This document shows positions 12,343 through 43,045 of a stretch of 44,582 nucleotides of DNA, piece after piece. This stretch comes from Streblomastix strix. Lineage: Eukaryota. The translations under genes and the position numbers were made by a program. Numbering within the stretch: position 1 is the first letter of the stretch; the number at the start of each line of letters is the position of its first letter. The notes under the pieces were generated by a model that did not search any database, was not told where the DNA came from, and worked only from the letters and a program-made list of their open reading frames with translations. The DNA is taken from assembly GCA_008636045.1 (NCBI GenBank), contig SNRW01000013.1, forward strand, positions 1 to 44,582. Reading direction: 5' to 3'.

Positions 12343-12348
12343 TTTGTC
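12343..12348 (+). repeat. Target-site duplication TTTGTC (left; right copy 31823-31828)
   Basis: Left flank ...GAATCTTGT-TTTGTC and right flank TTTGTC-ATGATTATAC... rejoin to match the paralogous empty site GAATCTTAT-TTTGTC-ATGATTATAC at 39307-39331. Confidence 0.92.
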
Positions 12349-12625: not shown

Positions 12626-12869
12626 GGTGCAGCTCAAAATTTAGCTCTTAAATCTGTTTGAAGCCGAAATTTTCGAGATTTAGTTTCATTTTAGTATTTG
12701 CGTGTTTTAGAGCTGTAATGTAAGATAATTTTAATGTAATGTATATAAAATGCATGAAAATAATATTGTCATCCATTATTTGCACTATCAAATAATACTA
12801 GCATATTCATACTTGATCCGATTTTCTGAGCCAAAATAAAAATAACTTTTCAAATCCTACATTAATTAC

Positions 12870-12980
12870 CGATCTTGATCTGATCTGATCATGATCGGAT
12901 CTACAACCTCCCCAAATTTATTTTTTAAAATTTTTTTATGTCCAGAATTCGATCTCGATCTCGATCTCGATCTTGATCCG
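12870..12980. repeat. Subterminal clusters of GATC-core short repeats
   Basis: GATCTTGATCTGATCTGATCATGATCGGATC (~12871-12901) and TCGATCTCGATCTCGATCTCGATCTTGATCC (~12949-12979). Confidence 0.75.
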
Positions 12981-13008
12981 GCGGTTTAAAACTAATTTTA
13001 GAAAAATT

Positions 13009-13081
13009 TGCCACTTATCGGTGTCGAACCTAAAACATTAAAATTTACGATGCAAACTCATGTCCACAGAGCTATTAAAGC
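13009..13081 (-). ncRNA. tRNA-like RNA polymerase III cassette (pseudo-tRNA / candidate viral small RNA)
   Basis: Minus strand reads GCTTTAA TA GCTC TGTGGACAT GAGT T TGCAT CGTAAAT TTTAA TGTT TTAGG TTCGACA CCGAT AAGTGGC A, 73 nt with tRNA spacing. It has an A-box-like TAGCTCTGTGG, a B box GGTTCGACACC and a paired D-stem, followed by a TTTTT terminator. Acceptor, anticodon and T stems pair poorly. Confidence 0.5.
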
Positions 13082-13114
13082 TAACACAAAAATAATATTT
13101 ATATATATTTATAA

Positions 13115-13525
13115 TCATTTTTGACAGAAAATTGATTTACTATTTAAAAATTCTGGTCTTCGTTTTTTTATTGAATTCCAATTATCAAATTCTTCCTAAG
13201 TCATATCATCATTTTTGTCTTTTGACATCAAATAATAAAATTCCCAATAATCTTACCAATATTATTAAAATTCTGATCTTTTTTCGTAAGGAACAAGCAT
13301 TTTTGGTTCAAGAAGATCAATATATATATTATATTGTATTGATTTTGGTAATTGCTTTATAAATTACGTTTATTATCTCATGTATGAATCTCTTTTCCTC
13401 TTAATTTCTTCTAAATCTACATAAGAATCATATTTAAGATGATTTTCAATTTCTGCAACTATGGAAATTTTATTGCTTGTCGACGATGTTGAAGTTGAAG
13501 TCATTTCTTTTTGGTTGTCTTTCAT
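13115..13525 (-). CDS. Viral hypothetical protein, 136 aa
   Basis: ATG-to-TGA ORF under TAR=Gln (MKDNQKEMTSTSTSSTSNKISIVAEIENHLKYD...QQYWQDYWEFYYLMSK...), divergent from pPolB. Confidence 0.65.
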
Positions 13526-13717
13526 AGAAAATTAAAATGTTTAATTAAATAAATAAGTTTAATTAAATAAATTAAATAATTTAATAAAAAATAAATTAAA
13601 TAATTTAATAATTAATTATTATTTTATTAAATTATTAAATTATATCTTAGTTAAAAATCTTTTTCGAGATCATTTTAATTTTAATTAAACCCACTCATAA
13701 TTTCAAAAATTGTTTCG

Positions 13718-16700
13718 ATGACACGAAATTATACTCGATAATAAGTGAATGAAATTGGTAGATTATTTGGACATAATTATTCAAGAGTTAATTTATAAGC
13801 TGGTTAATTCTTAATATAAGGCTTGTTTTAAGAGTATGGCGTTGATGAACCATATGATTACTCCCCTGAATTGATTTAGAAAATTATTGATGCAGTAAAA
13901 TTAAAGCAACAATAAGAAAAATAAAGACAGTAAAAATTACTTGATGATTTTTATGAATGGTCTAATTAAGTAACTTTAGAATAGTTAGGATTGAAATAAC
14001 CATCAAAAGAGATTCCTTAGGAGATTCCTTAGGAAAAAACTTAGGAAAAAGAAAAAGAGATTCCTTAGAAAAAGCATTAGAGAAAAACCTCATTAGAATT
14101 AAGAATTGAAGAACATAATAAATAAATTGAAGATTTACCTGATGAATTTTTTGAAAATTTTACCAAGCATGGCGTAAGTTAGATGGAAAAAGATTTACCA
14201 AAAGAATATGATAATCTATAAGTTGTTGTTAAATAACCAATTGCTAAATAAAAAGTAAAAATAAATGAATAACCATAAAAATAAAAAACTAAGATTTAAA
14301 TTTAATATCCAGTTTATAGATCTGATTTATCACCATAATTTGTTAATGAATAATTGAGAAGACTAGGTAAATAAACCGATGATCTCTCAAATTAAGCAGC
14401 TTTAGAATTGTTATCGTTATAATTATAAACATTAAACTACGATGATTCTAAATTATCAACTGAAGCTAGAATTAGAGCGTTTTTAGATAACTCTATTCCG
14501 GATTAACATTAAGAACAAGATTTGAATTTCTTATAACCATTAACATCAGAAGCAATTTCAGATATTCGTGATAGAATTGATAATCCAAAAAATAATAGTG
14601 AAATTAGAATATAAAAGGAATAACTTAATGAAAAATACAAGAAGATTCACTAAGAATTTAATGATATTCTTGAAGAATAACTGCAAACTTTTAAGATGGC
14701 TGATGAAGAAATAATAGCAGAAACATATAATTTTAATGATAAAGAACTAAAATAAATAGAAATTGAAGGCTTAATTGAAGAATAAGATAAATCACTTTTA
14801 TTAACTGAGCCAGTTAATTTATTGTAATTTTTATAATGTTTGAGATAAGCAAGAAGATAACATCCACAGCAATTAAAAGAAATTAAAGGAAAAATTGATT
14901 AAGACGGAAATGAACCTACTCATACATATATAAACAATTAAATAACTTCATTGGATGATATTCATAGATTTATTAAAGAAGTTTTTGAAAAAGAAAAAGA
15001 AAATCATTTTAAAATTGCTGTTGATTTCGGATATATACAAGAATATTAAGATGTAACTCCTGAAGGAGAATAAATATTAGAATATGACTCAAAATTTCCA
15101 AGAAAAAATTTAACACCATTGAATATTAAATCGCTTATTACAAGTTAAGAAGATATGGATACTTACGATAAATACATAGAAACAATAATAATCAATAATT
15201 AAGAACGAACTGAAGAATCTACAAAACATCATTTCATAGCAGTATTTTCAATGATTGTTATAGCTTATCGTATTCCATTTGCAGGTAAAGCTATTCCTGA
15301 GTTATAGAAATTTATTAAACGACGTGAAGTACATTTCGTTGAATCTCCATATCCAAATAATTGTTTCTTTGAAGCTTTATCATATTTATCAATGCCTGAT
15401 TCGAAAACTAATCGTTATAGATCTTAAAATAGAGTTGCTGAAGGAATTAGATTAATAATTTAATATTACAGCTTATCTGGCAATTCTGCTAAATGTAGAG
15501 ATGTTTAAAATTTTCTTGCTGATTTAAAGGATTTGATTTAGCTGCTGATGGTAAGAATATTGCAAAAAGAATGAATATAAATATCTGTGTCTATGCGTTT
15601 AAAGAAGATGAATAAGGTAACTCATTCTACTTAGATCATGTAATAAAATCATTTAATTATATCTTAGATGAAAATGAAACTCAAGTATAAGAGCAAGATC
15701 CACAAAATTTTAATATATTACTTCTTTAATTCTAAAATCAAGCTCATATATTATATGTTTCTGATCCAGAAGCATTAACCGGTTATAGATATTGTCCAAT
15801 ATGTAAGCTTCATGGTATTAAAATAAAAGATAAGAACTGTAATTCTGCGAGAGATTTTGAAAGACATGTTGAGAAATGTAAGTTAAATAAAGGCAAGCAA
15901 GTTCTACTATCATCATCTCAAATTCCATTTGCTCCACATATTTACGGTAATTAAACTTATATGCATCTATTAGCTAATGAAATGATTGATAAATTTAAAC
16001 CTACTCAATATTATATCACATATGATTTTGAGACTGTTGAGCGAAATATTAATAAATACTTTGGTAAAAAGAAGGATGAAAAGAATGATGCAGGTTAATA
16101 AATAAGTAATTCATTCTAAAACTCAATACTTGAACCATTATCAGTTGCAACTACAATTAAATCTAAATCTGGAATTAGAACAATCTATTACGATTTACGT
16201 TAAGGCCCAAGTTTTATAGAAAAATGGTTAGAAGAAGTATTTAAAGCTGCTGAATAAATTAAATAAGACAATAGTTATAATGATCCAGAAGTTCCTTATG
16301 AAATTCCTGTTCCAGTTGTTGGTTTTAATTCTGCACACTTTGATATGATATTTGTATTACCATATCTTACAAATAAAGATTGGCACATAGTTTAAGGTGG
16401 ATATCTTGGTGATTTCTCACATATTAAGCGAGTAGAAGTTAGACATAAAATAAGCAATGTAAAAATATAATTCTTAGATATTGGTATGTTTATGACTAAA
16501 ATGTCATTAAAAGAAGCTGCTGAATCATTCGGTGATGGAAATAAACAAGATTTGAAAGGAATATTTCAATATACAGAATTCAACTACGATAATTTTAATG
16601 AAGTGCTATCAAAATCCGAACCATTTGCTTAAACTGATTTCCTAAACTTACTCAAAGAATAAACATTATCTGATAAAGATTACTAAATTTATCTCGAAGA

Positions 16701-18885
16701 TAGCAAAAATTTTAAAACAAGATGGGAATATCTGAAGTATTATAATGAATAAGATACAAAAATTATGATAAAACCTATTGATAAACTAATTTAAATGAAT
16801 TTTAATAATGGTATTGATATGTTTAACTATGTTTCTATGGCAAGTTGTGCAAATGCTATCAAATATAAGATTGCTTGTGATGATTTCGATTTAAATGCTC
16901 GTTATGAAAATAAATCTGACACTTCTCTTATAAATTATTAGACATTCAATTTAACTGAATAATATTGGGGTATTAAAGTATAAAATTATAAAAAATAAGA
17001 TATTAAAGCTGGTAGAGATGTTTCAAATAACGTGAATTAGTCAGATTATGTGTATTTCAAATAATAACTTGAAAAAGGCTCTTGTTGGTATTGTTAAGCA
17101 AGATTTACTAAAACTAATCTTCCAACACTTGATAGAATCGATAATAAACTTGGTCATTCAAAAGATAACGTAAGATTAGCATGTTAATATTGTAATGTTG
17201 CAAGAGCTAATAGAGATGATAAAATATTTCGATTAAAAATATAACTTAAAAGATATTATTAAGCAAAACAATTGCCTATGCCATTAACAGATGAAGATAC
17301 ATATCATGAATTAAGAAACGGAATTACAGGTGGATTAGCTAATGCTTTTCATAGATATAATATTTCAGGAACAACTCATATAAATAAATTGAAATTATCG
17401 GAAAATAAAGTTGTTAGTTATGATTTAGAACATATTATGACACATATTACAGGTTTTGATTTCAATTCATTGTATCCATCTGTTTACAGTGGACTTTAAC
17501 ATGAATTTATTAGATATACTGGTCATTAAATGTATATGCCTGGCTATGAATTACTTAGAATTAATTGTGTAACTGAAAAATAAAAACAATTAGGATTAAA
17601 TATTATTGATAATTAATTAAGATTCTCTTTACAAAAATCTGACGTAGATAAAGTAACAATGTTCGTAGCATCTGTTAAAGGTCAAATCGACGAAGAATAT
17701 CTTAATGATTTTATTAATTGTCCACCAATAATTAGGAAATATAAATATAAATGCTTGGAATCTGTGATTGGTAAACTGATGTATGAGCATTAATTGAAAA
17801 ATAATTTACCAAAAGATAGAGATGAATGCAAATTAACTGTATTATTATCAACAATGGGTGAATACATGGATTTCTATTCATATTACTTATGGTTTCTTAT
17901 TGATGATTGTCATTTCATAATTGATGATATCAAAAACATTAAAACTTTCTCAAAACATTTAGGATTTGCACCATTTGTTAAACATTTCAGTAAATAAAGG
18001 CTCACAGCAAAATTATCTAAGAATGCTGGATTAGATTAATATAGTAAAATAATTATGAACTCATCTTATGGTTCTGATGGTATGAATTAAGAACATTTTA
18101 CAGATGTTAAGATATGCGATAGAGATGAAACATTTAGAGCTCATTTATATGGCAAATTTAAATCGGATCGTAAGTTAGGCGATAATAATTATGCTGTGGA
18201 ATATGAAAAAGAAAAATTTAGTTGTAAAACTTGCATTTAAGTAGCATTTGCTGTATTAGATTGTTCTAAGTATTGGTTTATGAGTATTTATTACAATTTC
18301 CTTTGCAAATGTATTGATTAATAACGTTTTCATGTTGTTTACTGTGATACAGATTCAATGATGTGTGCTGTATCAGGTGATCCAAATTAAGATTATCGTT
18401 AAGGATTCTCTGCAATAATTAATGAATAAAAAGTTTATGATGAAAATTTCTACAAATTCTTCCCAGATCCTAATAAAGACATATATGATGAAAAGAAATT
18501 ACTTGGAGTTGCATATGAACATTGTGGAACAACTATGATTGCATTAGCACCTAAGAATTATTGGTTAGATTAACCATTTGATAAGAAAGAACCTGAAGTA
18601 ATTAAATTGAAAGGATTAAATTTAAAACTCAATCCACAAATTAATAAGGAAGCATACATATAAAATTTCAAAGAAGGAACTGTAGTATAAGGTAAAAATA
18701 AATCATTAAGATAACATATAGAGCATAACTAGTAAAATGAAATACTTAGTCGAATGAGTAGAGTTGAAACATTTAAGAATGGTATTACAGGAACTCATAC
18801 AAAAATGATATGCTTAGCAAATGGATGTTGTTGTCCGTATGTTTACTAATTATCAGCAGATAACTATAGTGTTGAAAATCTATGA
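13718..18885 (+). CDS. polB: Protein-primed family B DNA polymerase with long N-terminal (terminal-protein/vOTU-like) region, Zn finger and inserted HNH-like domain; one -1 frameshift at ~15523-15529
   Basis: Frame 2 runs 13718-15574 (…PNNCFFEALSY…). Frame 1 runs from ~15523 to TGA 18883-18885 and contains FKGFDL…ININICVY…AHILYV, CPIC…H…C, Exo I YDFET, Exo II GFNSAHFD, Exo III YNEQD, CWYC…TLDRIDNKLGHSKDNVRLACQYCN, GITGG, Pol A DFNSLYPS, Pol B KIIMNSSYG, Pol C YCDTDS, APKNY and KLKG. Confidence 0.93.
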
Positions 18886-18930
18886 TAATAGTAAATAATC
18901 ATTTAATTTTATTTTTGATTTAATTCAAAC

Positions 18931-20349
18931 ATGTCTTTCAATTAGGATGATTTTGGTGTTCCACGTAAAGGTGGTCATTTCTTAAGAAAACCTTAAAAAC
19001 GAACAGAAGAAGAAATTCTATAAGATATTTTGAGTAGATATTCTGATGATACTGATGAAAATCAAAGATAAAATGAAGTTGGTAAATAAAGATTTATTGA
19101 AGGTATGGCAGATCTAATGAATCTAGGAATTAAAGAAATACTTGATAAAAATAAATCATTAAATTTTGAAGATTTCATTGAAAAATTAAATATACATGAA
19201 TCGTATGAAGAATTACCAGTTATGAGTAAATTTGCAAATTTTATCAAAATCGGAGGTAAATCATTAATTAATTGGTTTAATGAATATGTTGATATATTAG
19301 TTGCTAGAGGATAAAGAAGAAAACATATTGGAGAAGATATTAATGAAGGTAGAAGATAATTAAGATAAATTGTGGAATTTCCATTCAAATCAAAGTTAAA
19401 ATTATTTGAAAGAGCAAATTAAATTAAATTGCGACCATAAATTGATATCGATGAAAGAATAAATGTTCCTGATTATCAAATCAAATAATTATGCAAGAAA
19501 TTTGGAAGACCTTACTTTTCACAATACACAGGTTCATGGGAAATTGATTTAGTATTCTCGATGAATCCATTAATAAAACACGTTAGTTAAATATATTTAT
19601 TCTGCATTAACATTAATACTAAATATCTTGTTGTATATCCTATACGTGAAAAAACAGCAGATGAAATTCTCAATGCATTAATAATTTTAACAAGAAATTT
19701 CAAAGTAAATTATATCAGAGGTGATGGTGAAAGAGGATTTACAGCAGCAAAGTTAATAGAATTTTATAGGAGTAATTAGAATTCTTTAATTCACAGTTTC
19801 TTCATTAGTAATGCCGCTGCACCATTTACAAATCATAATGGAGTAGTTGATTCAGTTATAAGAACTATAAGAAATGCATTCGGATTAGATGAAAGAGCAT
19901 TTGCAAACAACAATTTAATGCAATAGATGGTTGAAATTTATAATAAAACTCCTCATAGTGCATTCAATAACTACTTTACTCCAAAGTAAGTCAATTAAGA
20001 TGAAGATCTTGAAGAAATATTCATAAGAAAACATAATAAATAATTATAAGAATAAAAGAAAATTTAAGTGCTTGAAGGATTGCATAATTTTTAGCCTGGA
20101 AATATTTTAATGATTCATGTTGATTATTCTCGTACATCACATTCATTTGCAAAATAAAGAAGAAATTTTAATGAATTAGCAGAATTTGTTAGTTATGTTC
20201 ATGGAAATGTTTGTTGTAACCTATTAAGGCCATTTAAAGAATTACGTAGGATTGAGATTCAAATATATTACTGTAAATATGTTTGCAAAAATATTGAAGA
20301 ATTATTTACACCTAAATTTAAAGATTATCGATAAGTATTCTTAATTTGA
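18931..20349 (+). CDS. Retroviral-like (rve) integrase, 472 aa
   Basis: GSWEIDLVF…YLFCININTKYLVVYPIREKTADEI…YIRGDGERGF…NHNGVVDSVIRTIR…MVEIYNKTPHSA…TP is the pattern of Polinton-type integrase cores. Consistent with the 6-bp TSD. Confidence 0.88.
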
Positions 20350-20417
20350 AAATTTTCATTTAATAATTTTTTATTTATTTTTTAATTTATTAATTTTTAT
20401 TTATTATCAAATTACGT

Positions 20418-20804
20418 ATGCAAAAAGAAGAAATTTAAGAATTAATTATTTAAACTTTGGATGAATTATAGCCTCAATTATTTAAAAAAGATGATGATTA
20501 AGTCAGTAAAGTTAGCACTCGTGGAAGAAAACGTAAATATTAATCTTAAGAAGAAGCAAAAGAAAGTTAAAAATAATAGAGTAAAATAAATGCTGCAAAA
20601 GCATCATTAAATAAAAAATTCTTTAAAACTCATGCAACAGATTCATAATAATAATTAATTAAGAGACTTCAAAAAATAATATTAAATAATGACGTTTTGA
20701 TATAAATACATGATATTGTTGATTAATACGATGAAAATATAATTAAATTAAAGAATGTTATTGCTTAAAGCTAAGAAATTTCATAAGATGAAGAATAAAA
20801 ATGA
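20418..20804 (+). CDS. Viral hypothetical basic/coiled-coil protein, 128 aa, possible DNA-binding
   Basis: ATG-to-TGA ORF containing TRGRKRKYQSQEEAKESQK (AT-hook/NLS-like basic motif followed by a helix). Confidence 0.7.
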
Positions 20805-20861
20805 AGTTAAAACTTTTTCTTATCAGTACTCATTGCATTCGCGCTCTAAAGAGTATATTTT

Positions 20862-22151
20862 TCAATCGTCATCAGTTTCATCAGTTTAACTTCCACTTCC
20901 ACCTTTCTTAGTTACCTTTTAATCTCCAAATATTTCTAATGCTGCTTCTTATTCATTTAATACTTTACTATCAATTTTTACTCTTTCTCCCGGTCGTTCT
21001 AGTTCTTCCATATCTCTTTACATAGCTTGCTAATGAGTAAGTATATTAATAGCTTATTCATATGAATATGTTGTTTATCCAAAATTGACTTCGAATGTTA
21101 ATTCATTTCTTTTCGTTCTTGCCCATTATACTTCAGCTGCAATTAAATCATATAGATCTCCTAATTCTGATAGTGGCTTACCTGAATATAATTAGTTAAA
21201 TACATTTATTGCAAGCTTATTTATTGCATTATATTTTTTCCTTGTATCTGGAGTACGATACAATTTGAAATAATCTGTATCCCTAAAAGCTGCTTTAGAT
21301 TAATCATTAGCATTCATAGCAGCAAAATATCCAATAAATTTCTTCTTCCAAATATATGGTGCACATTTTAAGTAAGTCATCTGTTATCTTAATCGTGTTT
21401 ATTGATCTGCTTATTTATTTATTACATGACCCAAACTCTTAAGCACAATTTATACAGCTTTATTGAATAGTTATTTACCAATTGCTGCAGGAATTAACGG
21501 TCTAATTGATTCATCATACCAAGTACCATAGTTATGTTCTCTTCTATTAGCTTTTTTAGGATATGCACCATAATATTAGTTCAATAAGAATCTTTATTTA
21601 GGTTCAACAGCACGATAACCATCAATAGAGTAAAATCCTGAAGGATTAGTTACAATAACATTATTAGGAGTATTAATATCTCTATCAAGATCTTCTGATT
21701 TAACTTTCCTTCCTTTTTCTTACAAACCTCTATCAGTAATCCAATTTGCAGCACTTTCTACATTAACTAATGCTTTTACTCTTTTAATATCTTTTGCTAA
21801 TTTGCCAACTAAAGTTAATAAAGCTGGTCCAGCTTAATCAGCTAATACTCTAGCTTATGCTTATCGTTATACAGCAAATCCACCTTATCTTCTCATAATT
21901 TCGTCAAAACTGACATTAGTTCTTGGTCTTTAAGGTTTACGAGCGTCTCTAATAATTCCTATATATCTTCCTTAATTCTTTATTACTGCTGGCAGATATT
22001 AATCATCTTTATATTATTCCTAATATGCTTTACGTCTACGAATTTCTTAAATGAGATCACTTGTTGGAATTTATGATGAGCTTGATGATGAGCTTGATGA
22101 TGAAGGTTATTATAAGAAGGCTCTTGAAGATATTAGTTCAGATCCATACAT
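20862..22151 (-). CDS. Viral hypothetical protein, ~429 aa (alternative in-frame ATG at 22181); possible core protein
   Basis: Long open frame under TAR=Gln (MYGSELISSRAFLQQPSSSSSSSSSQ…EDLDRDINTPNNVIVTNPSGFYSIDGYR…) ending at TGA; Arg/Lys-rich N-terminal half. Confidence 0.75.
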
Positions 22152-22225
22152 TGATTCTTTACGTAAAAGATAAAACTTCATATGAGTTCATTAATTGCAA
22201 ATGAAATGTTCAATTTAATTTTAGA

Positions 22226-22882
22226 ATGAACCAAATAATTAGAAATATGGATGAAAATCACGAGTTAAAGCAATCAGTTTAATCCGCATGGACGAACACT
22301 AAATAAATTAATGTGAGTTAAGTTTTAAGATCGTCGTCACCAAGTTAAGCATCTTTATAAACATTAGTTTCACCAAGAGCTATATAAACTATAGTTGAAG
22401 TTAAATCACCATTCGAAAAAGATCCTCAACCTATTTAAATTTCATCTCGAAGAAGATCATCAATATTTGAAGAAACAATAACTCCAGATCCAACAGTTTG
22501 TAAATGGTTATTAGATATCATAAGTGAAGATGAACATATGATTAAAGAATCAGCTCATTTCATTTTATCATAGCCTTAATTGACTCGTGTTGTTGCATAT
22601 ACTTATGAAGTTCCTGAAAGTTAAGTTGAAATACTTGTTGAAGATGAAACTTGTTGTAGCAAATTCTGTAATGACGGAACTGTAACAGTAACTGATATTG
22701 CAATTTCAAATGTAAATATCTTAACGTTAGACACAGATAAAGCAAATTTATTGAGAGATTCTTATAAAATATGTCTGTAAAAAGTTAGAAAAATATCATC
22801 AATATTAGATTTAGGAGAGATTTCATCAAGAATTATGCGAGCAGTATCATCAGGATTGATGTAAGTTTTATCTAAGGTATGA
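22226..22882 (+). CDS. Viral hypothetical protein, 218 aa
   Basis: ATG-to-TGA ORF with a Ser/Pro-rich N-terminal half and an ETCCSKFC motif. Confidence 0.7.
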
Positions 22883-22931
22883 TCATAATAATAGATAATA
22901 AATTTATTTTTGTTGAAAACACCGAATTAAA

Positions 22932-25829
22932 ATGCTTGACGGGGACTTACATATGTTAGATGTTGTCTTGAAACATGATGAGACATTATTTGGATCGAAT
23001 CGTACAAATACTATTGGAATTGTGGAATAAATTACAAATATCAATAATTAAATCAATATGATTAATAACGCACCTGCACCTGATGTATATACAAGAACTG
23101 AAGCAATTGAGTTATTTGATAACAAAGCCGACAAAACTGATCTTGATGAATATTACAGTAAATCTGAAACTTATGCTAAAGTTGAAGTCTATAATAAAAC
23201 AGAAGCTGATGAATTTCTTGATGAAAAAGCTAATGTTGGCACTTCATACTCTAAATCAGAAGATGATTCATTGCTATTATTGAAAGCTGACAAAACTTAG
23301 TTAATAGATTCATATTCAAAATCAGAAGATGATGCATTGCTATTACTGAAAGCTGACAAAACTGAGTTAATTGATTCATACTCTAAATCAGAAGATGATG
23401 CATTGCTATTATTGAAAGCTGACAAAACTGATTTTGATGAATATTACACAGCTGGATAGGTTGATGAAATGCTTGATGAAAAAGCTGACAAAACGTAATT
23501 GATTGATTCATATTCAAAATCTGAAGATGATGCATTATTATTATTGAAAGCAGATAAAACTCAATTGATAGATTCATACTCTAAATCGGAGGATGATGCA
23601 TTACTAAATAATAAAGCTGATATTGGAGTTTCTTATACAAAAGGTGAAGATGATGCATTATTATTATTAAAAGCTGATAAAACTTAATTGATTGATTCAT
23701 ACACAAAAACAGAAACAGATACCAAATTAGCTTTGAAAGCAGATTAATCAACAACTTACACAAAATCTGAAGATGATGCGCTATTATTAGCAAAAGCTGA
23801 CAAAACAGACTTAGAAAACTTTGTAGATCTGTCTTCAGCTCAAACAATAACAGGACAAAAATAATTTGGAATAGTTAGTGTATCTAGCATATCAAAACTT
23901 ACTAAAAATGATGCATCAATTCTTCTCGCTGGTGGTGGTGATATGCTTGTAAGTAGTTTAGTTACATAACCATAATTATAAGAAGTCAGAGATATTGCAT
24001 CAGGAAGATCAAAAGGTCATGTATTCGATACATTATAAGATTTAAATGATTGGATGGCTATTCCTGATAATGTTGCAACTCTTGTTATTGGAGATAATTT
24101 ATATATAATTGATTCATAAGTTACAGATTATTGGTGGGATGGAACTTAACTTAGAGAATTAGAAACTTAACTGCCAGATTTAACTAATGTTGTAACAACA
24201 CTTGGTGAAGCAACTGGAAGTGGAAATGCAATAACTGATCTATAAATTGATGGAAATATATTGACTCCAGCTAAAAATAAAAATTTCATTGATTTGGAAT
24301 ACAATCAGACGATAACTGGCTAAAAAACATTCACAACAACTATTCATTCTGTTGGTATTACTTATTTAGATTACGATAATTCTAATGTAATTTTAGCTGG
24401 TGGTGGAGTTAGAGCAATTGCTGATATTTAAGGTGCTTCATACACAAAGGCATAAGATGATGCGTTACTATTACTTAAAGCTGACAAAACATAACTGATA
24501 GATTCATACAGCAAAACAGAAACAGATACTAAATTAGGTTTGAAAGCAGATTAATCAACAACATATACAAAATCAGAAGATGATGCGTTATTGTTATTGA
24601 AAGCTGATAAAACTTAACTAATAGATTCATACAGCAAAACTGAAACAGATAACTTATTGAATGATAAAGCAAATCAATCAACAACTTACACGAAATCAGA
24701 AGATGATGCATTGTTATTGTTGAAAGCTGATAAAACATAAATAATAGATTCATATACAAAATCGTAAGATGATGCGTTATTGTTATTGAAAGCTGATAAG
24801 ACTCAATTAATCGATTCATACACTAAAACTGAAACAAATAATCTCTTAAATAATAAAGCAAATCAATCAACAACATACACCAAAACAGAAACCGATAACT
24901 TAATAGCATAGATTGATGTTGCAGATGTTGATTTGAGCAGCTATTACACGAAAACTAAAACTGATGAATTATTAGGTGAGAATGCATATACAACTGATCT
25001 AGAAAATTATGTTACATTAGGCACTTAATAGGTAATAACTGCAAATAAAACTTTTCAGAATCCATGTAGATTCACAAGTTCAATTGATGGAACGGGAACA
25101 ATTACTGGATCATCATTTGTCAAATCAGGTGCTGATGATAGCGTTGTATTACTTGGAGCAGGAGGTACTAAGCCAATATCTGAATTTGGTGGAAGCGTTG
25201 ATGATTCGAATTATGTGAAGAAAACGGGATAAGAGCTTTAATTAATTCATGGGGTATTACGAAGAGATGATGATGAGGTATCAATGTTAGAGTATGATGA
25301 AGATTATTTGACAAGATTAGAAGTTGACAGAAAACTAACAAATTATGTTAATAAAACAACAACGCAAACAATTGCAGGATCAAAGACTTTTTCTAGTAAT
25401 GTTACTGCTTCGGGATTTGCAAAAACAAGTAAAGATGATACGTCTGTTCTATTAGCAGGTGGAGGTGACATGTTGATATCAGCATTTGGAGGGGCTGAAG
25501 ATATTACTTCGACAGTTTCTAGTTATGGAGCTAATATGGTATTTACAAACACTACATTTATCAAAATTGGGAAATTGAGACTATTCAGAGGCACAGTTCA
25601 TCCATATAATAATATTTCTGCATCTTCATCGGATAGTGTAGTGTCATTAAGTTTTTTAAATCATCCTGCTTCAGATACTCCATTAATTGTTGCAAGAGAT
25701 ACAACTAATTCAATAAAAATGTATGTATCAGCAAGCAATTCAACAATATACGTTAATACTACCACTTCTTCATGGGCTAATACACTCGAAATAACAATAT
25801 ATGGTTGGTGGATTGCGCCATAAGGTTGA
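22932..25829 (+). CDS. Phage-tail-fibre-like repeat protein (putative virion fibre), 965 aa
   Basis: Two arrays of 19/22-aa repeats (SYSKSEDDALLLLKADKTQLID; 57/66-bp period). Four QT/VIxxxKx/TF units, each followed by a (I/V)LLAGGG-like motif. A C-terminal beta-rich tip ends ITIYGWWIAPQG. Confidence 0.75.
23244..23810 (+). repeat. Coding tandem repeat array 1 of the fibre gene (66/57-bp units)
   Basis: TCATACTCTAAATCAGAAGATGAT… recurs at 23244, 23310, 23376 and onward. A second array lies at ~24438-24900. Confidence 0.85.
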
Positions 25830-25883
25830 TATCTCTGATGCAATGAAAACGTTAATTAAATATTTATTTTTGTTTATGATCAA

Positions 25884-27515
25884 ATGACAGTATATATTGA
25901 CGAAAAATTACTTGAAGCTGCTGGATTAACTAATTTTCCAGAGTTATATGCTTATATTAAAGAACAAGAACCAAAATCAAGTGAAGAATAGCCATAACTT
26001 GTTCCAATAGGTGAATAAACGTTATAAGAATAAGTTAAATAGAATGCTGCAATAATTAATGATGAAAATAATGAATTTATACCTCCACTAGTTGAAAATG
26101 TATAACCTAAAGTTGATTTATAAGATTAACTTGAGTTAGCAGAAGGTTGTACATGGTTGGTTAATTAATAAATGTAATAATTGAGTGTTTCAAAAAAGAA
26201 AGTTACTTACAATTTCTCATTAAAAACAACAAAATATTTTCATGGATATATATTTGAAAATTGGCCTGAATAAGCAAAACCAAGAATTGAAGATAAAATT
26301 ATTATAATAGTAGGATCAGATTCATTGTAGAAAAATAATATATTCGGATATATTGATTAAAATGGTCCTTATATTTCATTAGATGGAGATGAAGATATAT
26401 AATCTGGTATTACTATTATTTTATCAGGCACTTATTATACAGAATATACACCAATTAAACAAGCTTTACATGATAGCAACAATGATAATAAATTAGACAT
26501 ATAAGATACATGGAATGAAATTGCTAAAGGAGGAGAATATAAGACATAATCTTGGGTGTATGAAATTGTAAAGCATTAATCAGATGTACTTGAATAGAAA
26601 TCATTAGGACCAGAATCTGCAAAATATAATTGGTTAAGTAGCAATTTATTAATTGATCCAGTTTCAATATATGGTCCTGATAGAGCAATGTTTTATTTGA
26701 TTGATGGACCTCAAATCACATTTAATTTTAAGTCTAATGTTAGTGATAATTCATTAAATTACTATAAAGTTTTTCAAAAGATTAATCCAAGATTGCTTAC
26801 ATAAAAAACTAAATATTTTACTGTACATCCTTGTTAATATGAATTCTATGCTCATATGGATGTGAAACCTAACGGAGATGCCGATATATTTAATAAAAAT
26901 AAGATGGAAGTGAAATTCAATGGTTAACCTGGTAATAGAGATGTAGAATTTGCTGGTACATATATTAATGATACTTATGTAAATCCTGAATCAACAGATC
27001 CTTAAGCTGATAATAAAGCTAAATCAAAAATAGATGAAGTAATAGTACAACATGATAGTAAAATTGGAAGAGCACCATTATTTACTGATTATACAATAAC
27101 TGATTTAATGGATTAGGTTCAATTTGCTGATTATTTTAGAAATGGATAGATTGAAATAATTAATGAAGGTTATTCTCCACCAACAATAATAAAAGATAGT
27201 ACATTATATCGAGTAAATGACGGAGTGAATAATTTAATTGTATTCAATTTTTATATTGAATAACTAGATAATAATAATGTAAGCTCTAATTTAATGCTTT
27301 GTTGGTTACCTGATGAAATTGTTCCATTAACTAATAAATATTTCCCTTCATCATGCTATATAACTGTACCAGCATAATCATATTTTGATAAGAGATCATC
27401 AAGTTATGCAAAGATAGATTCTGGTGATAAAGGGCTATATATTCATCTAAGTGATCCTGTACAAGATACTAAAAGAGGTAGAGTTTATTACATAAGTGGA
27501 AGTTATTACATTTGA
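25884..27515 (+). CDS. Viral protein with three tandem beta-rich receptor-binding-like domains, 543 aa
   Basis: ATG-to-TGA ORF with three internally similar segments (VTYNFSL…NWPEQAKP…ILSGTYY; ITFNFK…INPRLLT…EFAGTYI; IVFNFY…WLPDEIVP…YISGSYYI). Function is inferred. Confidence 0.65.
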
Positions 27516-27632
27516 GCTCATTGTATTCGTACTCTACTAACTATGTTAGCGCTCTAAAGAGTAAAGAGATTACAGTAATTATTCATGAAGTTAATATTTT
27601 TGTTAAACCGAAACAAGAATACAATTAAAAAG

Positions 27633-27944
27633 ATGGCCGTAGGTTTGTTTCATAAAATAAAACAATTAGCATCAAAAGTTGGCAAAGGATTATAATGGGT
27701 AAATGAAAAAGTTGTAAAGCCGGTAGTTCTTCCAGCAATGAAGTAATTTAGTGGTATAATTCCTGGTGGAGGATTAATTAGAAAAGGAATAGAAACAGGT
27801 TCATCTGCACTTGATGCATTCTATGGATAAGGTTCATAATAAGACTTCAAAGAAAAATATAATGATTTATTAGATGATCCATACTTAAGAAATTTACCGA
27901 TTGATTAACTAAGTAGATTAATAAAACTTAGAGGCAATTAATGA
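27633..27944 (+). CDS. Small protein (103 aa) with N-terminal cationic amphipathic helix; candidate membrane-penetration/internal virion protein
   Basis: MAVGLFHKIKQLASKVGKGLQWVNEKVVKPVVLPAMKQFSGIIPGGGLIRKG…, located directly upstream of the putative MCP. Confidence 0.7.
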
Positions 27945-28015
27945 ACATAAATATGAAACTTAAGAATGATTAATGACGAAGTTAAGAGATTATTTTTGTT
28001 CTTTCACAAATCAAC

Positions 28016-29729
28016 ATGAATCGTTTTCTAGCTAAAGCAATCTAAGTTCAAGGATTAAATACAATTGAATCTCAACTTGAATCAAATGCAGTGACACCGT
28101 TCAAAAATGATGGTGAACATCACTATTCAATTAAAGAAATTAAACCTGAAAGTTAGATGCCAGCATTATTTGATAAAGAAATTATTATAAGTTTATCTGA
28201 CAGTGATCATGATGTAACTTAGATACAAAATTCATTCTTATCAATTGTATTGACTGCAAATCTATAGTTCGATAATAAATTCGATTAATTTGATGATGCA
28301 TATAAGGATGGTGTAGTTTTATTTGTAGGATTGAAGTCAGGAAGTAATATAATTCGTGAATATACTGTTTATCATCGAGGAAGAACTATTGATGGAAGCT
28401 TATAGAATGATGCAACAAACTGAATCATTCATTTATAACACTATCAAGCCAAAATCAGAGAAAAATAACAGAAAACATATTCATTCGTTATATGAAAATA
28501 TCCATAAATTTGATACTTCAGCATGTGGAACTTATATAACTATGAGAGAAATTGAAGAAGCAATTGGAAATTAAACAAGTGTACCATATTTGATGCCAGT
28601 TAGATTCAGAATTTCAGTTCCTTTAGATGATATACTTATTTTCTCAGCATTTACAGATTATCCTAATGGAATGTTTGGAGATCTTAAGATTAAATTCAAA
28701 ATCAATCCAAATGCTTTCGTATTTGCTTAAGTTAATCCAACAGTATCACTAGCAAAATATTATACAATGAATAAAGATGAGTTATTGAGTTCAGGATAAT
28801 AAAAATTGATGGATATTGATCTCTTCTTCCGTAATTGGAGCTTAACATTCTAATATACGAAATAATTTACATAACTTGGATGTACAGCTGATTTAATAAC
28901 AAGTATCAAAACTGAAGAATTAACTCAAAGTGGTTTGAAGAATTTAATTTGCGATATTAATCCAGTTACGATTTCAATAAAAAATTACGTAGTAACTGAA
29001 GTTACAGCAAATATGGCTGGATATAAAGCAAATGATGCATGTTTGGCAAGAGTTAGAGATTTCTTTAGTACTAGAGCTTTTGTAGTTCCTGCATAAAGAG
29101 TTGAAATTTGGCCATTTCCAACTTCTGCAACACTTACAGGAATAAGAACTTCATAAAATATTCCATTATCTCATGTTACAGATTTTGTATTGCTATTTCC
29201 TAAAGATGCTAGAGCAACAACTTGCTTTGAAAATCCATGTTATTAAAATATGTAACTTACAACTTGTGGAAGAAATTTCCCAGATATGCCAATGAATACT
29301 ACTGATTAATAATTCTTCCAATTATAATTGAATGCTAGTAATTTAGATCTATTATTTGAAGCAACTGATGAATTTGAAGATGCATTAACTACACCTAGAA
29401 ATACTGCAACAAGAAGACTTAATCCACATACAGATTTAACCTCATTCATGATTTCATTGCAATGCGAGAGAAATAGTAATGGAACTCTAACTTTTGATGG
29501 ACTTGATACAATGAATTAGAATACATCTGTTGAATTAAGAGGTGCACCAATTTATTAAGGAATTACAGATAGTTATTATAATGTAGATACTAATGGAAAA
29601 CGACCTCCACCTCCAATTCTACGTACAGTTCATGATACATTCTGGTTATTTAGTCCTAATCAAGGTGGTTCAGCTCATTATGATACAACACATTCATTTG
29701 ATGAAGTTGTAGGAGAAATTGGAGCTTGA
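28016..29729 (+). CDS. Probable double-jelly-roll major capsid protein (~570 aa), interrupted by a 1-nt insertion at ~28417-28419
   Basis: Frame 2 runs from ATG 28016 to TGA 28421-28423 and continues in frame 3 to TGA 29727-29729; removing one A from GCAACAAACTGAA gives ATTESF. It is beta-rich, with strand patterns SNIIREYTVYHRGRTID and QNMQLTTCGRNFP in the two halves. Its size and position beside the penton-like gene and ATPase fit an MCP. Confidence 0.7.
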
Positions 29730-29828
29730 GAATGAAATTTACAAGCGACGAGCTTCGCAGTCTCTTGATTATAAATAATTAATTGAATAAATAAATAAAT
29801 TAATAAATTATTTTTATTTTTATATCAA

Positions 29829-30251
29829 ATGTAAGTTGCAGAAAATAAGAAACATTTCATTATAACTCGAGATCTTACATAAAATGAATAGCACTCATTC
29901 CAAAGAAGATTACAAGTAGATTTCGTAAATTCATAGAATGAAAGAAAAATAACGTTTATTTAATGTGTAGTTCCATGGAAAGTTAAGAAATATTTCTATG
30001 ATTTGAATTTACAAGAAGATGATGAAACAACTCCAATAGATCATATGAAGATATCATTTCATTCAACTTTAGTTCAAGAAGAATAATATAACGATTATTA
30101 TGTTGGTTAATGTGATGAATAAAGAGCTTAAAAAATATTTCCTCAAATGAATCGTAGACCTATGATTTACTTTTGGTTTAAGGATCAAGATGGAAAAGAT
30201 CTTGATGTAGAACATATGGATTTCATAATTGAATTACTGTTAGAATATTGA
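29829..30251 (+). CDS. Probable minor capsid (penton) protein, compact single jelly-roll, 140 aa
   Basis: The C-terminus IYFWFKDQDGKDLDVEHMDFIIELLLEY matches the 'hxhxhxDxxGxxhxh…hxhxLxh' ending typical of Polinton/virophage pentons. An internal ISFHSTLV is also present. Confidence 0.65.
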
Positions 30252-30403
30252 ATGAAATGTATATATGAGTTATTTTTCATTGAATGAAACATTGTGACAC
30301 ACTGTGACACGATATGTCTCGTATGATATTTGATAGCAGAGCTGGAAGTCGAACTAGAATACCTCAAAAACCAATCATTTAAAATGTACCAGAGATATAA
30401 ATA

Positions 30404-30712
30404 ATGGAGAAATTTAATCCAGATGTAATAATTTTTGACAATGTGAATGAATTTAAGTAATATTTAGCAATGAATAAGGAAGAAATGGAGAAAAAATCTA
30501 CGTTGAAACTAAATATGTAATATAAAATTAGAGATGGTTATAGAATTACTAGATTGAAAGGTATAATATCATTAAGACTATGGCCTAAGGAAATGAAGTT
30601 AGAAAAATAATCAGAAACTATTGAATAGATGCAGAATATAGATTAAAGATTGGAAAATTTAATAAATGCATTGTTAATTAAAAATATAATCACAGAAGAA
30701 GATTTAAACTGA
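30404..30712 (+). CDS. Viral hypothetical protein, 102 aa
   Basis: ATG-to-TGA ORF (MEKFNPDVIIFDNVNEFKQYL…YRITRLKGIISLRLWP…) with a C-terminal coiled coil; convergent with the ATPase. Confidence 0.7.
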
Positions 30713-30753
30713 AAATATAGATATTTACATGCAAACTTCGTTTTCATGAATTT

Positions 30754-31530
30754 TCACGATAAGATTTCAATTGTAGTTCCATCAATATTATATTTAACTA
30801 GTAATGCTTCTCTTTTTGGAAGTTATACATATTATTACCAGAGTTCTTCTTTAACAATTGGAATAGAAGATTAATAGAAGAACAAATTAAATTTTTATCT
30901 ATTAAATGCACCGAAGAAATAGATTGAATCAACATTTGATTTAATTGCAGCATCAAGACCAATAATATCTTACAAGCAAAGGAAATAAGTGATTCTTGGC
31001 TATCTATTTTTAAATAATTTCTTGAATAATGGACTCATTTTATTTTTGAATATAGACATTGCATCATCAAATAGTACGATTGTATGTGGAGATTTAATTT
31101 TAAAATCATTAGCACCAGTTTTATCTAATATACTTTAACGTGAATCTTATTCTAAATACTTATCAATTTTATGTTGTATTACTTAATCATATGCTTATTT
31201 TCCTTCAATTAATTCATCAAGAACACCATTTATTTCAGCATATGGTACGATTTTAGTTGGAATTTTAATCAAATGCTTCATTTTTTAATAAGTTTGGTCG
31301 TTATTAGTATCTGTAACATAAATAAATAGAGTATAACAATGAGATTTTAACTGACTCAGTTTAATTAATTCCCTGAAAACATTGTAAGTTTTACCGCTAC
31401 CTCGTTAACCAATCAATAAATTAATTGAATTGTAAGTAAAATTAAGCTCTTTATGAATTGAAGACTAAATATCATGCTTATCTTAATCAATATTCGATAA
31501 AAGTGCGTTTACGTGTCTAGTTAAAGCCAT
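30754..31530 (-). CDS. A32-like (FtsK/HerA superfamily) genome-packaging ATPase, 258 aa
   Basis: Walker A LLIGQRGSGKT, Walker B IVLFDD, then NRQPRITYFLCLQD (Arg finger plus conserved Gln) and IKSNVDSIYFF. Both motif Gln residues (GQRG, CLQD) are TAA-encoded. Confidence 0.92.
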
Positions 31531-31545
31531 TCTTATTTAATACGA

Positions 31546-31822
31546 GATAATATTAACGAACAAATTCACATCAAAATTATCAAAACATCGCTTTTTTATG
31601 AACTACCCTATCAAAATTGCGAAACGCTAAAAACTCGTTTGCGATGAAAATGCTCGCTCAAAATTCGTTATCGTAAACTGAAGGCCAAAAATTTCAGACT
31701 AGCACAAAACTCAAAGGCTCAAAATTGTAACATCTTTAGCAAATAACACAGAAATTCAGTGAAAAATGTGCAAAACACTGGAAAAAAATGAAATACCCTA
31801 TTGACGTCCTAGCTATATTATT
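31546..31822 (-). repeat. Right terminal inverted repeat (277 bp)
   Basis: Ends GACGTCCTAGCTATATTATT. Inverted copy of 12349-12625. Confidence 0.95.
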
Positions 31823-32099
31823 TTTGTCATGATTATACTTTATATATTATGGGGAAATAGATAGCTATATCTATCATAAATTATTGGACATTTTAATATT
31901 GCGAATATATTTAAGTGAGTAGACAAAAATTATGAAGTTAATATAACAAATTCAACATAAATAATTTGATCAATTAATTTTGGTAAAGTTAAATAGAGAA
32001 ATAATTATAATTGATACATAGAATGAATCGGATATATTCATTCACGTTAAGTAATTCGTCTATAAAGTTAAAGGGTTCAATTTTCATTTATTAAACTTA

Positions 32100-32870
32100 A
32101 ATATTTATTCTTTTCAGCGTTTGCAGTTAATGTATTAAATTAACGTACATTTTCTAATACTTAAGCTCTTATTTGTTCACTAACTATTCCATAAATCCCG
32201 CTAAATACACATAATAATGATACTTCCATAGATATTGGTTGAGGATAGTTATGAATAGTTAAATTCTTCAATCCATCAAGACGCACCTATGCAAATTCAT
32301 CATCCATTTTATCAATGGTTCCATCATTCGTAATCTATTATCCAAATATTCTTATTATTTTCAATTTCTCAAATTCCGCTTTTGGTATTTCAATATCAAC
32401 ATTCCATGATTCTAACATATCTCTTAGATTCGTTAAATGTGTCATGTTAGCCCAATCATTAATCGTTTCATATTTAAGTGTTTCTCTAACATTATTCTTT
32501 GTTTCTCGAATAGATGTGTTTGGACCAACAACACGATTTTATACAAGATCTATTTACATTGGATCATCTTCAAATTATTTATGCTTATACATTTATGCAA
32601 ATATATCAATTTCAATGCTATCCAATCCAATACATTTTATATATCAAATACTAGGTAGATGATATCCATTTTTATTATAATATACACGTAATCGTCCATG
32701 AGCTGTTTTAATTAATCCAACATTAGCAGATAAAATATTATCAGTTATTTTTTAGCGAATCTCATCAATCTTTTCTTTAAATAGATTCTTCTTAATATAG
32801 AAATCAATTACACATAAATTTCCATATTCTACAAATGTTAAATCGATTAATTTACCTGTAACTTAAGTAG
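32100..32870 (-). pseudogene. Decayed primase-polymerase (Prim-Pol/AEP-like) gene fragment
   Basis: VTGKLIDLTFVEYGNLCVIDFYI…NVGLIKTAHGRLRVY…QNRVVGPNTSIRETKNN…; homologous to 37328-39160, with degenerate catalytic motifs and no start. Confidence 0.7.
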
Positions 32871-33282
32871 TTATGTGAAAATGGAGAGTGCTTACACTGA
32901 AAAATAAAATAAAATAATGTAAAATTAATAATAATAATATTTAAATTATTTTATTCAAATGATGCAAAATTATAATTTTTTTTATTTTTTACATTTTCTA
33001 ATATAAATCAGCTGGTAAGAAAAAGAATTGAATCGTAATATAGCATACAACTGATATAAAATTACACATGTAAGAGTTTAATATATTATCTATTCGTAAT
33101 TGACTTTAACTACTTTATAATTACTCTAAACTCTTTAGTTATTCATAATAAATAGAATCTTATTTTATTTATAAACTTCAATTTATTAAAGATTCTTCTT
33201 CAAAATTGTGTGAAATATAATTATAAAGTTTATATTTTTATGAAAATAATATAGAATAATAATTATTAAATATTTATAAAAA

Positions 33283-33356
33283 AGCCCCCGGTGGGATTCG
33301 AACCCACAACCTTTTGATTACAAATCAAACGCAATATCCAACTATGCTACGGAGGC
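33283..33356 (-). tRNA. trnT: tRNA-Thr(UGU)
   Basis: GCCTCCG TA GCATAGTTGGATATTGC G TTTGA TT-TGT-AA TCAAA AGGTT GTGGG TTCGAAT CCCAC CGGGGGC T forms a full cloverleaf, followed by an oligo-T terminator. Confidence 0.95.
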
Positions 33357-33788
33357 TCTCATTAAACGCTGAGTTACATTCTTTGTTCTTTATATACTTA
33401 ATAGCCTTAATTTTCTCAATATTCTCATGCATAAGTTCTGCTCTAAGATAAAAAATAATTTTAATAAAATGATAAATTTCAATAATCTTTTTATTTTAAT
33501 TATTTTTTTGAATTTAAAATTTATAAGTATTATAGCCTGATATACACTATTGATTCTTAATATAATATATTTATTATATTGATTCCAATTCCATAAATAT
33601 TCAACCATATGTGTGGAAATTAAAGCTACAAATTAATTTAAAAATGTTGTAAATATTTATTCTATTTCTATTCATTCAATTGTTTTCTCAATTAAAAAAT
33701 TGGTAAAAATAAAAATAAACTCTCATATAATTTTAACTTTATTTATATATGCATATGTAGCATATATGTTGTATATCATAATAATATA

Positions 33789-35550
33789 GGACACCATCAA
33801 AGATTAACTGGATGGATCTGGTGAAAATCTTAATTTTTTAAAAAATATCATATGTTAATTTTACAAATATATTTTAAGGTATTTTATGAATAATGTCATA
33901 AATTTTAATTATCAATATTATATTATGTACATATATGTAATAAAAATGGGTACAATATACATGACGAGTCGCGCGCCTCTATATATATTATTATTCGCTT
34001 CGCTCGCAAAGATTTAATGTCGATATAATTTCTAATTATAATTTAAATAATAAAAATAAAAATAAAAATAAAAATTGTGTATTTCTAAAATTTAATAAAA
34101 CGATAATGTATTTCATGAAGAATGTGCTTCATCACGTACATTATCGCTCGCTTCGATTGATAAATTAATTTTATTATATTTTTTTCTCTCATTTATTAAA
34201 ATTGTTAATATTTTAAATTAGTTTAGATTTTTCAAACACTTCAATGGAACTAAATCAGCGAATTTTTAACGTTGGATAACTGAACCGGATTTTATGTATG
34301 CAGAGGCAACAATGAAGTTGTTCATTGATGCTAATTAGTTTTCTGAAACTAAAAAAATGTCCAAGGTGTCTTAGAAGTCTAAATCAAAGTGATAATGGAA
34401 TCGGAGAAAGAATTTGCAGATGTTATTGCACCATTCCTAAATTTTCACGTACATGGCGATTTGAAACTTCACTTTTCAGAAGAAAAAAAGAAATTGATCT
34501 AATTATGATGACAGCAATTCATTTTTGGTTACATTTAACACAAAAATAGTCATCAGAACTTTCCGAACTTTCTCATCTAACTACTTCAAAGTTATGTAAG
34601 TTGTGTAGAAGATCTAGCGCTTTAGAAAAAATAAATAATTTTATAAAACTAAATGGCTACAATAAAACAATAAAAATCGATGAGATGGCTGTGTACAGAT
34701 GCAAATACAATATTTGATGAAGAAATGTCCAACAATATAGGTTTTTTGAGCAGTCGAAAGGGACGAATTCGGTATAAATTCAATGAATATATATATAAGG
34801 AAAATATTAAATCGCGCAAAAGAAACCCTATATCAAATAATCAGAGATTTCATTACAGAATGTTCACACTTTTTCAGTAACTGCTGGAAAGTATATGACT
34901 CGATACAATAAATTTCTGGAATGAATTTCCGTCTCAAGAATGTATAATTATTATTTTTTTTATATTTCAACAAACGTTTTTATAGATCAAACACTCAAAA
35001 TACTTTGTGGATCCTATAACCAAAGCTCGTACCAACATGTTTGAGGGTAATTGGATCCTTCTTAGAAATTTCTTCCCTAGACATGGTTTTACAGCTTTAT
35101 ATTTAAATGAATATATATAATCATATATATAGTAAAAAATAAAAATTTCTATCTTTTTACAAAATCTCTTATGATCTATTCTGAAAAATCATTCGTAAAT
35201 GGAACGATGCAAGATGATGAACAAGATGATGACTCCGATGGTAACGATAGATATTCCCAACCGACATTTTCAATACAAAAAGACCAAACTCAATAGCCGA
35301 CATATGATACATGGATTGAAAATCCAATTTCACGAGAAAACAGGCCAAAAGACCAGTTAAAAGACCTTTTAACTGTTATGATTTAATCTACGATACAGAT
35401 ATTGCCTATTATGTTGATAATGTATTAATTTAACCAACCGATACACTATTATCATTAACTAATTGTTAATAAAATTTCAAATTTTTTTTAAAAAAATTCA
35501 ATTTATTTTTTATAAAAACTTAAATTTTCTCCAGATCCATCCAGTTGATC
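33789..35550 (+). mobile_element. Decayed Merlin (IS1016/ISXO2-like DDE) DNA transposon, copy A
   Basis: Inverted repeats GATTAACTGGATGGATCTGGTGAAAAT (33802-33828) and ATTTTCTCCAGATCCATCCAGTTGATC (35524-35550) flank the transposase remnant. The outer right end appears lost. Confidence 0.75.
34243..35120 (+). pseudogene. Merlin/ISXO2-like transposase pseudogene, copy A
   Basis: Across frameshifts and stops: CPRC…CRCYC Zn ribbon, KLNGYNKTIKIDEMAVYRCKYN, ETLYQIIRDFITECSHFFSNCWKVY, KHSKYFVDPITKARTNMFEGNW. These correspond to the family consensus VEIDES…KYNRG, TL..II…SDCWKAY, NHS..FVDP.TG.HTN.IE..W. Confidence 0.85.
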
Positions 35551-35551
35551 A

Positions 35552-35847
35552 GTAGTAGGCAAAAGACACACATTGTCAAATAGAATTAAAACTTAAAAAT
35601 AATGAGAAAGTGTCGGTGCTGAAAATGATAAATAATAATGAAAAATGAAAAAATTTATGAATAAAATGAATGAAAATAGAAAAATAGAAAAGTATATATA
35701 AAAAAAATATGAGTAATTTATGAAAAAAGAAGAACAAAAAAGATAAATTGTAAGGGATTATGAAGATAATTTTTGATGATCAATAATGGGATAACTTTAT
35801 TTTTGAGATTAAATTACATTGGTCAATGTGTTTCTTTTGCCTACTAC
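35552..35847. mobile_element. MITE-like element (~300 bp) with ~30-bp TIRs, copy A
   Basis: GTAGTAGGCAAAAGACACACATTGTCAAAT (35552-35581) and ATTGGTCAATGTGTTTCTTTTGCCTACTAC (35818-35847) are inverted repeats around a non-coding A-rich interior. Confidence 0.7.
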
Positions 35848-43044: not shown

Positions 43045-43045
43045 A

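Follow-up and report, generated by a model that had tools for sequence, protein, structure and literature searches.

The window, the whole 44,582-nt stretch of contig SNRW01000013.1 that was analyzed, comes from Streblomastix strix, an oxymonad protist of the termite gut. It contains a 19.5-kb element (12349-31822) bounded by 277-nt terminal inverted repeats of 97% identity. The element is flanked by a 6-bp target duplication, which was proven against an empty site (39316-39321) in a 7.49-kb host repeat; a duplication of this length is expected of an rve integrase, as described in PMC12220804. The element is a Polinton-like endogenous virus with the following features.

12349-12625, + strand: left terminal inverted repeat, with target duplication at 12343-12348
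13718-18885, + strand: protein-primed DNA polymerase B region in two overlapping frames (13718-15574 and 15571-18885); PF03175 at E 7e-9, above the cut-off; phrog_1907
18931-20349, + strand: integrase-like ORF; rve_3 at E 0.045 only, with a fitting 6-bp duplication
22226-22882, + strand: 218-aa ORF upstream of the fibre gene, included in 22 of 120 gene models
22932-25829, + strand: fibre gene, 965 aa with TAR read as Gln, from ORF translation
25884-27515, + strand: 543-aa neighbour predicted to have two, possibly three, fibre-head domains (low-confidence model)
27543-27944, + strand: small ORF with a basic amphipathic N-terminus; no family match
28016-29729, + strand: probable major capsid gene in two overlapping frames
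29829-30251, + strand: probable minor capsid (penton) gene, 140 aa, by position; no family match
30754-31530, - strand: probable packaging-type P-loop ATPase with Walker motifs; ATPase_2 at E 1e-4, under the cut-off
31546-31822, - strand: right terminal inverted repeat, with target duplication at 31823-31828

The probable major capsid protein had no match in Pfam, PHROG or the PDB and no relative in the viral contigs. We take the ORF at 29829-30251 to be the penton protein from its position and a motif, and the ORF at 27543-27944 is presumably a membrane-lytic protein, given its resemblance to adenovirus protein VI; sequence related to the latter ORF also follows the 543-aa gene in other copies. 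An adenovirus-type protease was looked for in Pfam and PHROG, and none of the element ORFs scanned matched a protease family. Since the polymerase and capsid genes are each split between two frames, the window copy may be inactive.

Within the polymerase region, an HNH/endonuclease VII-like insert interrupts the frame at 15571-18885, at about its aa 470-560. The element ends start with AAT (12349-12360); canonical Polinton ends carry an AG repeat. No family match was found for the ORFs at 20862-22181 (- strand, 439 aa) and 20418-20804 (+ strand, 128 aa), the former of which is basic and might act as a core DNA-binding protein. On the host side, the element is flanked by a VPS13-like gene (385-11005) and a nucleoside diphosphate kinase gene (11409-11825), and a host unit is repeated at a spacing of about 7.49 kb (31822-36000 and 39315-43492; 12199-12357 and 39172-39330). 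Each copy of the unit holds a tRNA-Thr(TGT) gene (33282-33357, 40774-40849; - strand), and the virus is inserted in one copy. Three decayed gene copies in both orientations (37564-38892, + strand; 32077-32954 and 39570-40097, - strand) had no Pfam match; judging by a motif we assume them to be primase-like, and they are possibly the remains of another element.

It takes the reading of TAA and TAG as glutamine (NCBI table 6) for the fibre gene to open as a single 965-aa frame, which bears out the recoding proposed in the earlier note on this DNA. Thirty such codons lie in the ORF, and reading the region with table 11 yielded only fragments of 80-179 aa. The gene is laid out as follows.

22932-23087, + strand: conserved N-terminal segment (aa 1-52), matched in 40 of 120 sequences at a median of 65%
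23088-23816, + strand: shaft array 1, 19/22-aa beta-layer coiled-coil units
23817-23966, + strand: neck module 1 (QTITG...LLAGGG)
23967-24191, + strand: central 75-aa module, common to phage/prophage-type proteins
24282-24431, + strand: neck module 2, BppL_N-like (PF18338 at E 3e-4, under the gathering cut-off)
24432-25001, + strand: shaft array 2, which matches residues 460-528 of DT57C LtfA
25002-25340, + strand: neck module 3 and an acidic stretch (aa 761-803)
25341-25499, + strand: neck module 4 with a conserved pre-head box (about 25429-25466)
25500-25826, + strand: head domain, class A of ten, a predicted phage RBP/fibre-head beta-barrel

The N-terminal 52 aa, the central module (aa 346-420) and the acidic stretch were absent from the earlier note, as was the second head-bearing gene downstream. 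Elsewhere the layout agrees with its description: YxKxExDxLLxxKADK repeats lie in two arrays (the strict motif occurs eight times in the 965-aa protein), the terminal domain is distinct (aa 857-965, 109 aa), and the 57/66-bp DNA repeats form two arrays (23243-23806 and 24439-24828) with periods of 66 and 123 (57 + 66) nt. The four QTIxGxKTF...LLAGGG modules are likewise present, although the literal QTIxGxKTF is found in two of the four and the literal LLAGGG in two, the rest being variants.

KA[DN][KQIV] occurs 18 times in the protein, and 2000 shuffles of its residues never gave more than 3. A solved trimeric tail fibre, the SF370.1 tail-fibre hyaluronidase of a Streptococcus pyogenes prophage (2C3F, an alpha/beta coiled coil), has a beta-layer coiled-coil tandem that sixteen 19/22-aa units of the S. 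strix shaft match; PMC4786415 gives the tandem consensus as LxxKADKxxVYTKxE. Six units have this hexad spacing and ten a nonad form three residues longer, and none arose in 5000 shuffles. Unlike 2C3F, the S. strix fibre has its 16 tandems in two arrays that combine hexad and longer nonad spacing, and no hyaluronidase domain was found in it. At least one beta-layer tandem is present in 106 of the 120 fibre sequences. As PMC4786415 describes them, the beta-layer proteins found were all homotrimers save one pseudo-threefold monomer. Judged by its sequence, the fibre protein appears to have a repetitive shaft of this known trimeric type. Among the ten core units, 720 codon pairs showed 214 synonymous and 75 non-synonymous differences, indicating that the protein, and not merely a DNA repeat, is conserved.

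The likeness to phage tail fibres claimed earlier was recovered with PHROG, in which the fibre matched phrog_5004 (E 4e-30) and the tail-fibre family phrog_10305 (E 1e-4), and in a match of array 2 to phage DT57C LtfA (E 6.5e-5), a trimeric protein whose residues 460-528 are unresolved in the cryo-EM model described in PMC10713586. We also searched 1.84 billion representatives with a profile for fibre relatives. The five proteins least S. strix-like among the matches listed carry the same tandems and a phrog_5004 match, and three of the five also match tail-fibre families. The best relatives outside S. strix matched PHROG tail-fibre or phage families, in line with the phage reading of the earlier note. 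A tblastn search against 50,697 phage records gave one weak match. A host cytoskeletal repeat protein was considered and rejected; the best homologues were not cellular eukaryotic proteins outside mobile elements.

Neck modules start at aa 304, 459, 700 and 812, with glycine boxes at 331, 487, 740 and 840, and their motifs reached a maximum of 1 in shuffles. PF18338 (BppL_N) scored 13-21 bits on the necks of the window fibre, below the gathering cut-off of 25.8, and exceeded it in two of nine relatives scanned (P0008 and P0063; 29.2 bits). The necks align with the beta-layer of TP901-1 BppL, the BppL-like neck start lying at aa 804-845 (E 0.46).

The central module is non-repetitive and had no Pfam family match; its identity to prokaryotic-type proteins is 42-60%, and 20 columns are invariant across eight rows. 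Relatives were found in 227 viral-contig stretches (43-56% identity in the 80 kept), one of which lies in a tail gene flanked by tape measure and endolysin. A further 27 loci came from bacterial genomes, whose titles point mostly to gut anaerobes. The module also occurs in proteins with PF18454 or PF13884 domains, which we take to be Mtd_N and the S74 chaperone, respectively. Among its best 120 matches, S. strix was the only eukaryote named. An unrooted tree of 79 columns, built after removal of rows more than 90% alike, placed 17 S. strix rows on one long branch, separate from 59 others (SH-aLRT 99). A pattern search detected a shaft or neck motif in none of 96 carriers outside S. strix, which argues against a single phage donor. 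The simplest reading, in which the direction of transfer is drawn from the distribution of the module, is that it was acquired once, long ago, from phage. A metagenome scan with the middle block of the fibre returned 95 relatives, of which 80 were kept; the 18 that were translated were all open under table 11, and none was an S. strix-like element.

A very common group of viral contigs of ~150 kb (L008-L080, match at about 10001-10231) also encodes the module, within an 800-aa protein, and high profile scores of P0142 and P0274 suggest that the module is duplicated in some proteins, one of them an S. strix copy. An SH3-like identity was not accepted, the PDB profile matches being weak (best E 0.003).

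The C-terminal domain is predicted to be a phage-type receptor-binding head with a fibre-head/RBP beta-barrel, class A being the class that was folded. In the model of a 179-aa piece (aa 785-963), pLDDT was about 90 over piece residues 71-179, which make up the head. Foldseek with this model placed the TP901-1 RBP first (E 8.5e-5), and phage proteins led the viral library. In the VIA comparisons, the Listeria phage PSA RBP (gp15) scored Z 10.9 (rmsd 2.2, 99 aligned), the bIL170 head 10.6 and TP901-1 9.9. Thus the predicted fold is that of the lactococcal TP901-1 BppL, p2 and bIL170 RBP heads and of PSA gp15 (Z 8.8-10.9), at 9-14% identity; those heads sit on a baseplate, whereas the S. strix head would sit on the long shaft of an icosahedral-type eukaryotic virus. 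Zamilon Zav_19/20/1 and the adenovirus fibre have the same fold on a double-jelly-roll-type virus, but the S. strix shaft would be a beta-layer coiled coil and not a beta-spiral or collagen. As bioRxiv 2023.01.23.525297 describes, the fibre-head fold is common to unrelated viruses including virophage, adenovirus and reovirus, so that likeness of the head supports its function and not its origin. Of the phage derivation proposed in the earlier note, the part concerning shaft, neck and central module stands, while for the head it is not provable.

Alternatively, the fibre could be a vertically inherited one of Polinton/adenovirus type, its phage likeness reflecting convergence of simple fibrous motifs. 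This would agree with the fibre-head fold of Zamilon Zav_19 (Z 7.7), reovirus and adenovirus (Z at most 6.5), with the beta-layer tandems that PMC4786415 also describes in bacterial adhesins, and with codon use, in which no foreign trace is seen: TAR makes up 0.77 of the Gln codons in the fibre, 0.78 in the polymerase and 0.82 in the host VPS13 gene. The fibre being so like the host in this respect, no trace of a recent arrival is left. However, the phage heads, at Z 10.9-8.8, outrank the heads of eukaryotic viruses (Z 7.7 or less), and a non-repetitive central module with its degree of identity to prokaryotic-type proteins, named in no other eukaryote among those best matches, is hard to ascribe to convergence. 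We regard vertical inheritance as quite unlikely.

To compare copies, we used 120 sequences: the window protein and 119 of the best 120 of 372 fibre matches, all of which were named Streblomastix strix. The match that was dropped is the window's own gene model, which fuses the fibre ORF to three downstream ORFs via false introns. The copies were studied as public automatic gene models rather than DNA, and because such models contain false introns, artefacts may account for short arrays and for some of the joins. Array 1 measured 44-296 aa in 32 copies and array 2 29-434 aa in 71 copies, where the low values may be model artefacts; this several-fold variation agrees with the length change that the earlier note had anticipated from the DNA repeats. 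The variable tip that it had anticipated was also found: with ten seeds chosen by eye, a head could be assigned to one of ten classes in 85 of the 120 sequences, the other 35 being without a head. Median head identity was 79% within classes and 15% between them (60 full heads), and profile comparison did not firmly link classes C and D/H to the others.

We then set head class against a tree of the 205-aa middle block, using the 50 rows in which the middle block was complete and a head was present. On this tree, classes E, C, D, A and F were scattered like shuffled labels (E, 13 changes against 13.8 when shuffled; C, 13 against 12.4), whereas class I was clustered (2 changes; 0 of 500 shuffles). 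Taken together, the nine head labels were slightly clustered (25 changes against 29.2; 3 of 200 shuffles). An AU test on 49 rows, one long branch having been dropped, rejected monophyly of classes A (p 0.0015), C and E, with p down to 1e-101; the classes were defined before the tree and the three tested were chosen after it. The window copy belongs to a starred clade of six, whose heads are A, A, H, C, F and C, and 17 of 980 different-head pairs had a middle block at least 90% identical. Since head class is mostly at odds with the shaft tree, heads have likely been exchanged between copies. Among 55 full heads of classes A-H, 40 retain the pre-head box of neck 4, and none of the five of classes I and J does. 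Contigs of four runs converge on this box and leave with different flanks; we infer that it is a candidate crossover zone.

It could be argued that the fibre is real but that head swapping and length variation are assembly or gene-model artefacts of a repeat-rich, amplified genome. A node of many contigs at the pre-head box fits a collapsed repeat as well as a crossover zone, and the gene models do fuse adjoining genes via false introns. By contrast, the window neck-to-head join was bridged in all three studies, without difference by X3 record 17 and X1 record 4 (independent assembly of a single sample, which may be the source) and, in two further studies, with differences (X2 record 12 and X4 record 25). 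In addition, a 4758-nt contig (X3 record 22) matches the middle block and the downstream gene, with ~1690 unlike bases in place of the window's 1423, and the ten head classes exist irrespective of any joins. An artefact is in our view unlikely, and exchange between copies is preferred.

The 543-aa neighbour would be a second, multi-head adhesin. Its model is poor (mean pLDDT 45), and within this low-confidence model aa 73-188 match the same heads as the fibre does (Z 10.8 and 10.1) and aa 402-543 match fibre heads weakly (Z about 6); a Foldseek search with the same low-confidence model returned no match at E 0.001. All of its 18 relatives are from S. strix, and six of them have locus tags next to that of a fibre copy. 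For Zamilon several fibre proteins per virus have been proposed, whereas here the neighbour would carry several heads in one chain.

Taken together, we consider it likely, with good confidence, that the gene encodes a homotrimeric virion attachment fibre with a conserved anchor, a beta-layer shaft, necks and an exchangeable C-terminal head. The conserved N-terminal segment (aa 1-52) would anchor the fibre on the capsid, and the repeats would form a beta-layer coiled coil, followed by the necks and the receptor-binding head. A homotrimer is proposed because the beta-layer proteins described in PMC4786415 are homotrimers or pseudo-threefold, and a location on the virion by analogy to Gezel-14T Ltf. 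At about 0.15 nm per residue, the 433 aa of the two arrays would span ~65 nm. Unequal crossing-over between 57/66-nt units would change fibre length, and homologous recombination in the conserved neck just upstream of the head would exchange heads, thereby retuning the receptor, probably a glycan, on the host cell or a helper virus. The shaft, neck and central module were likely taken from gut phages long ago, once in the case of the central module.

Could the copies instead form a host-domesticated family of surface adhesins, for example for holding ectosymbiotic bacteria, and not be part of a virion? The presence in a single genome of hundreds of variants, bearing heads of many kinds, would suit such a family, as would a fibre frame that is whole in the window copy while the polymerase and capsid genes are split. 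Yet no signal peptide or membrane anchor was apparent by eye in the fibre sequence, the same viral neighbours are kept beside copies, and many copies are truncated or broken, as the 35 without a head illustrate. We consider domestication very improbable and retain the virion fibre. S. strix does bear a coat of ectosymbiotic bacteria, and a more speculative extension of the virion fibre, which we hold to be doubtful, is that the shuffled library of phage-type heads recognises bacterial surface glycans, with the virus docking on the ectosymbiont coat as a way to its host and being retuned by head exchange at the fixed neck box, beside a second multi-head adhesin.

Two aspects are already published: such elements read TAR as Gln, and Polinton-like viruses carry phage-like fibres. 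PMC10120064 reported endogenous S. strix viruses that use the host code; these Metamonada-group viruses share host, code and element type with the one described here, and the words fiber, fibre and tail do not occur in the main text of that paper. In PMC12220804, Polinton-like viruses are described with modular fibres of phage type, BppL_N and phage tail repeats among their parts, and the Ltf protein of Gezel-14T was detected in particles (bioRxiv 2022.07.28.501842). As described there, these are likewise long modular proteins of protist endogenous viruses with phage tail repeats and BppL_N-like modules; the S. strix fibre, unlike those fibres, has no S74 chaperone, collagen or laminin G match. 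The available text of PMC12220804 does not name S. strix, and head exchange among copies was found neither there nor in the available text on Gezel-14T Ltf. In the open literature, taken without supplements, we found in print neither S. strix fibres nor head exchange in endogenous Polinton-like viruses, nor the fibre architecture, a ten-head repertoire with exchange in one protist genome or a multi-head partner; papers behind subscription and the supplementary material of PMC10120064 and PMC12220804 may bear on the point.

These results bear on cell recognition by Polinton-like viruses. Of the "hypothetical" gene models of S. strix, hundreds appear to encode viral fibres, many of them fused to neighbours by false introns. 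The results also document fibre modules of phage type within a eukaryotic virus, in a gut habitat that the two share. One genome holds more than 100 near-sister fibres that have their shaft in common and bear ten alternative heads, each about 100-120 aa long. Because these heads are small enough to be expressed and screened on glycan arrays, receptor specificity and its turnover are directly testable.
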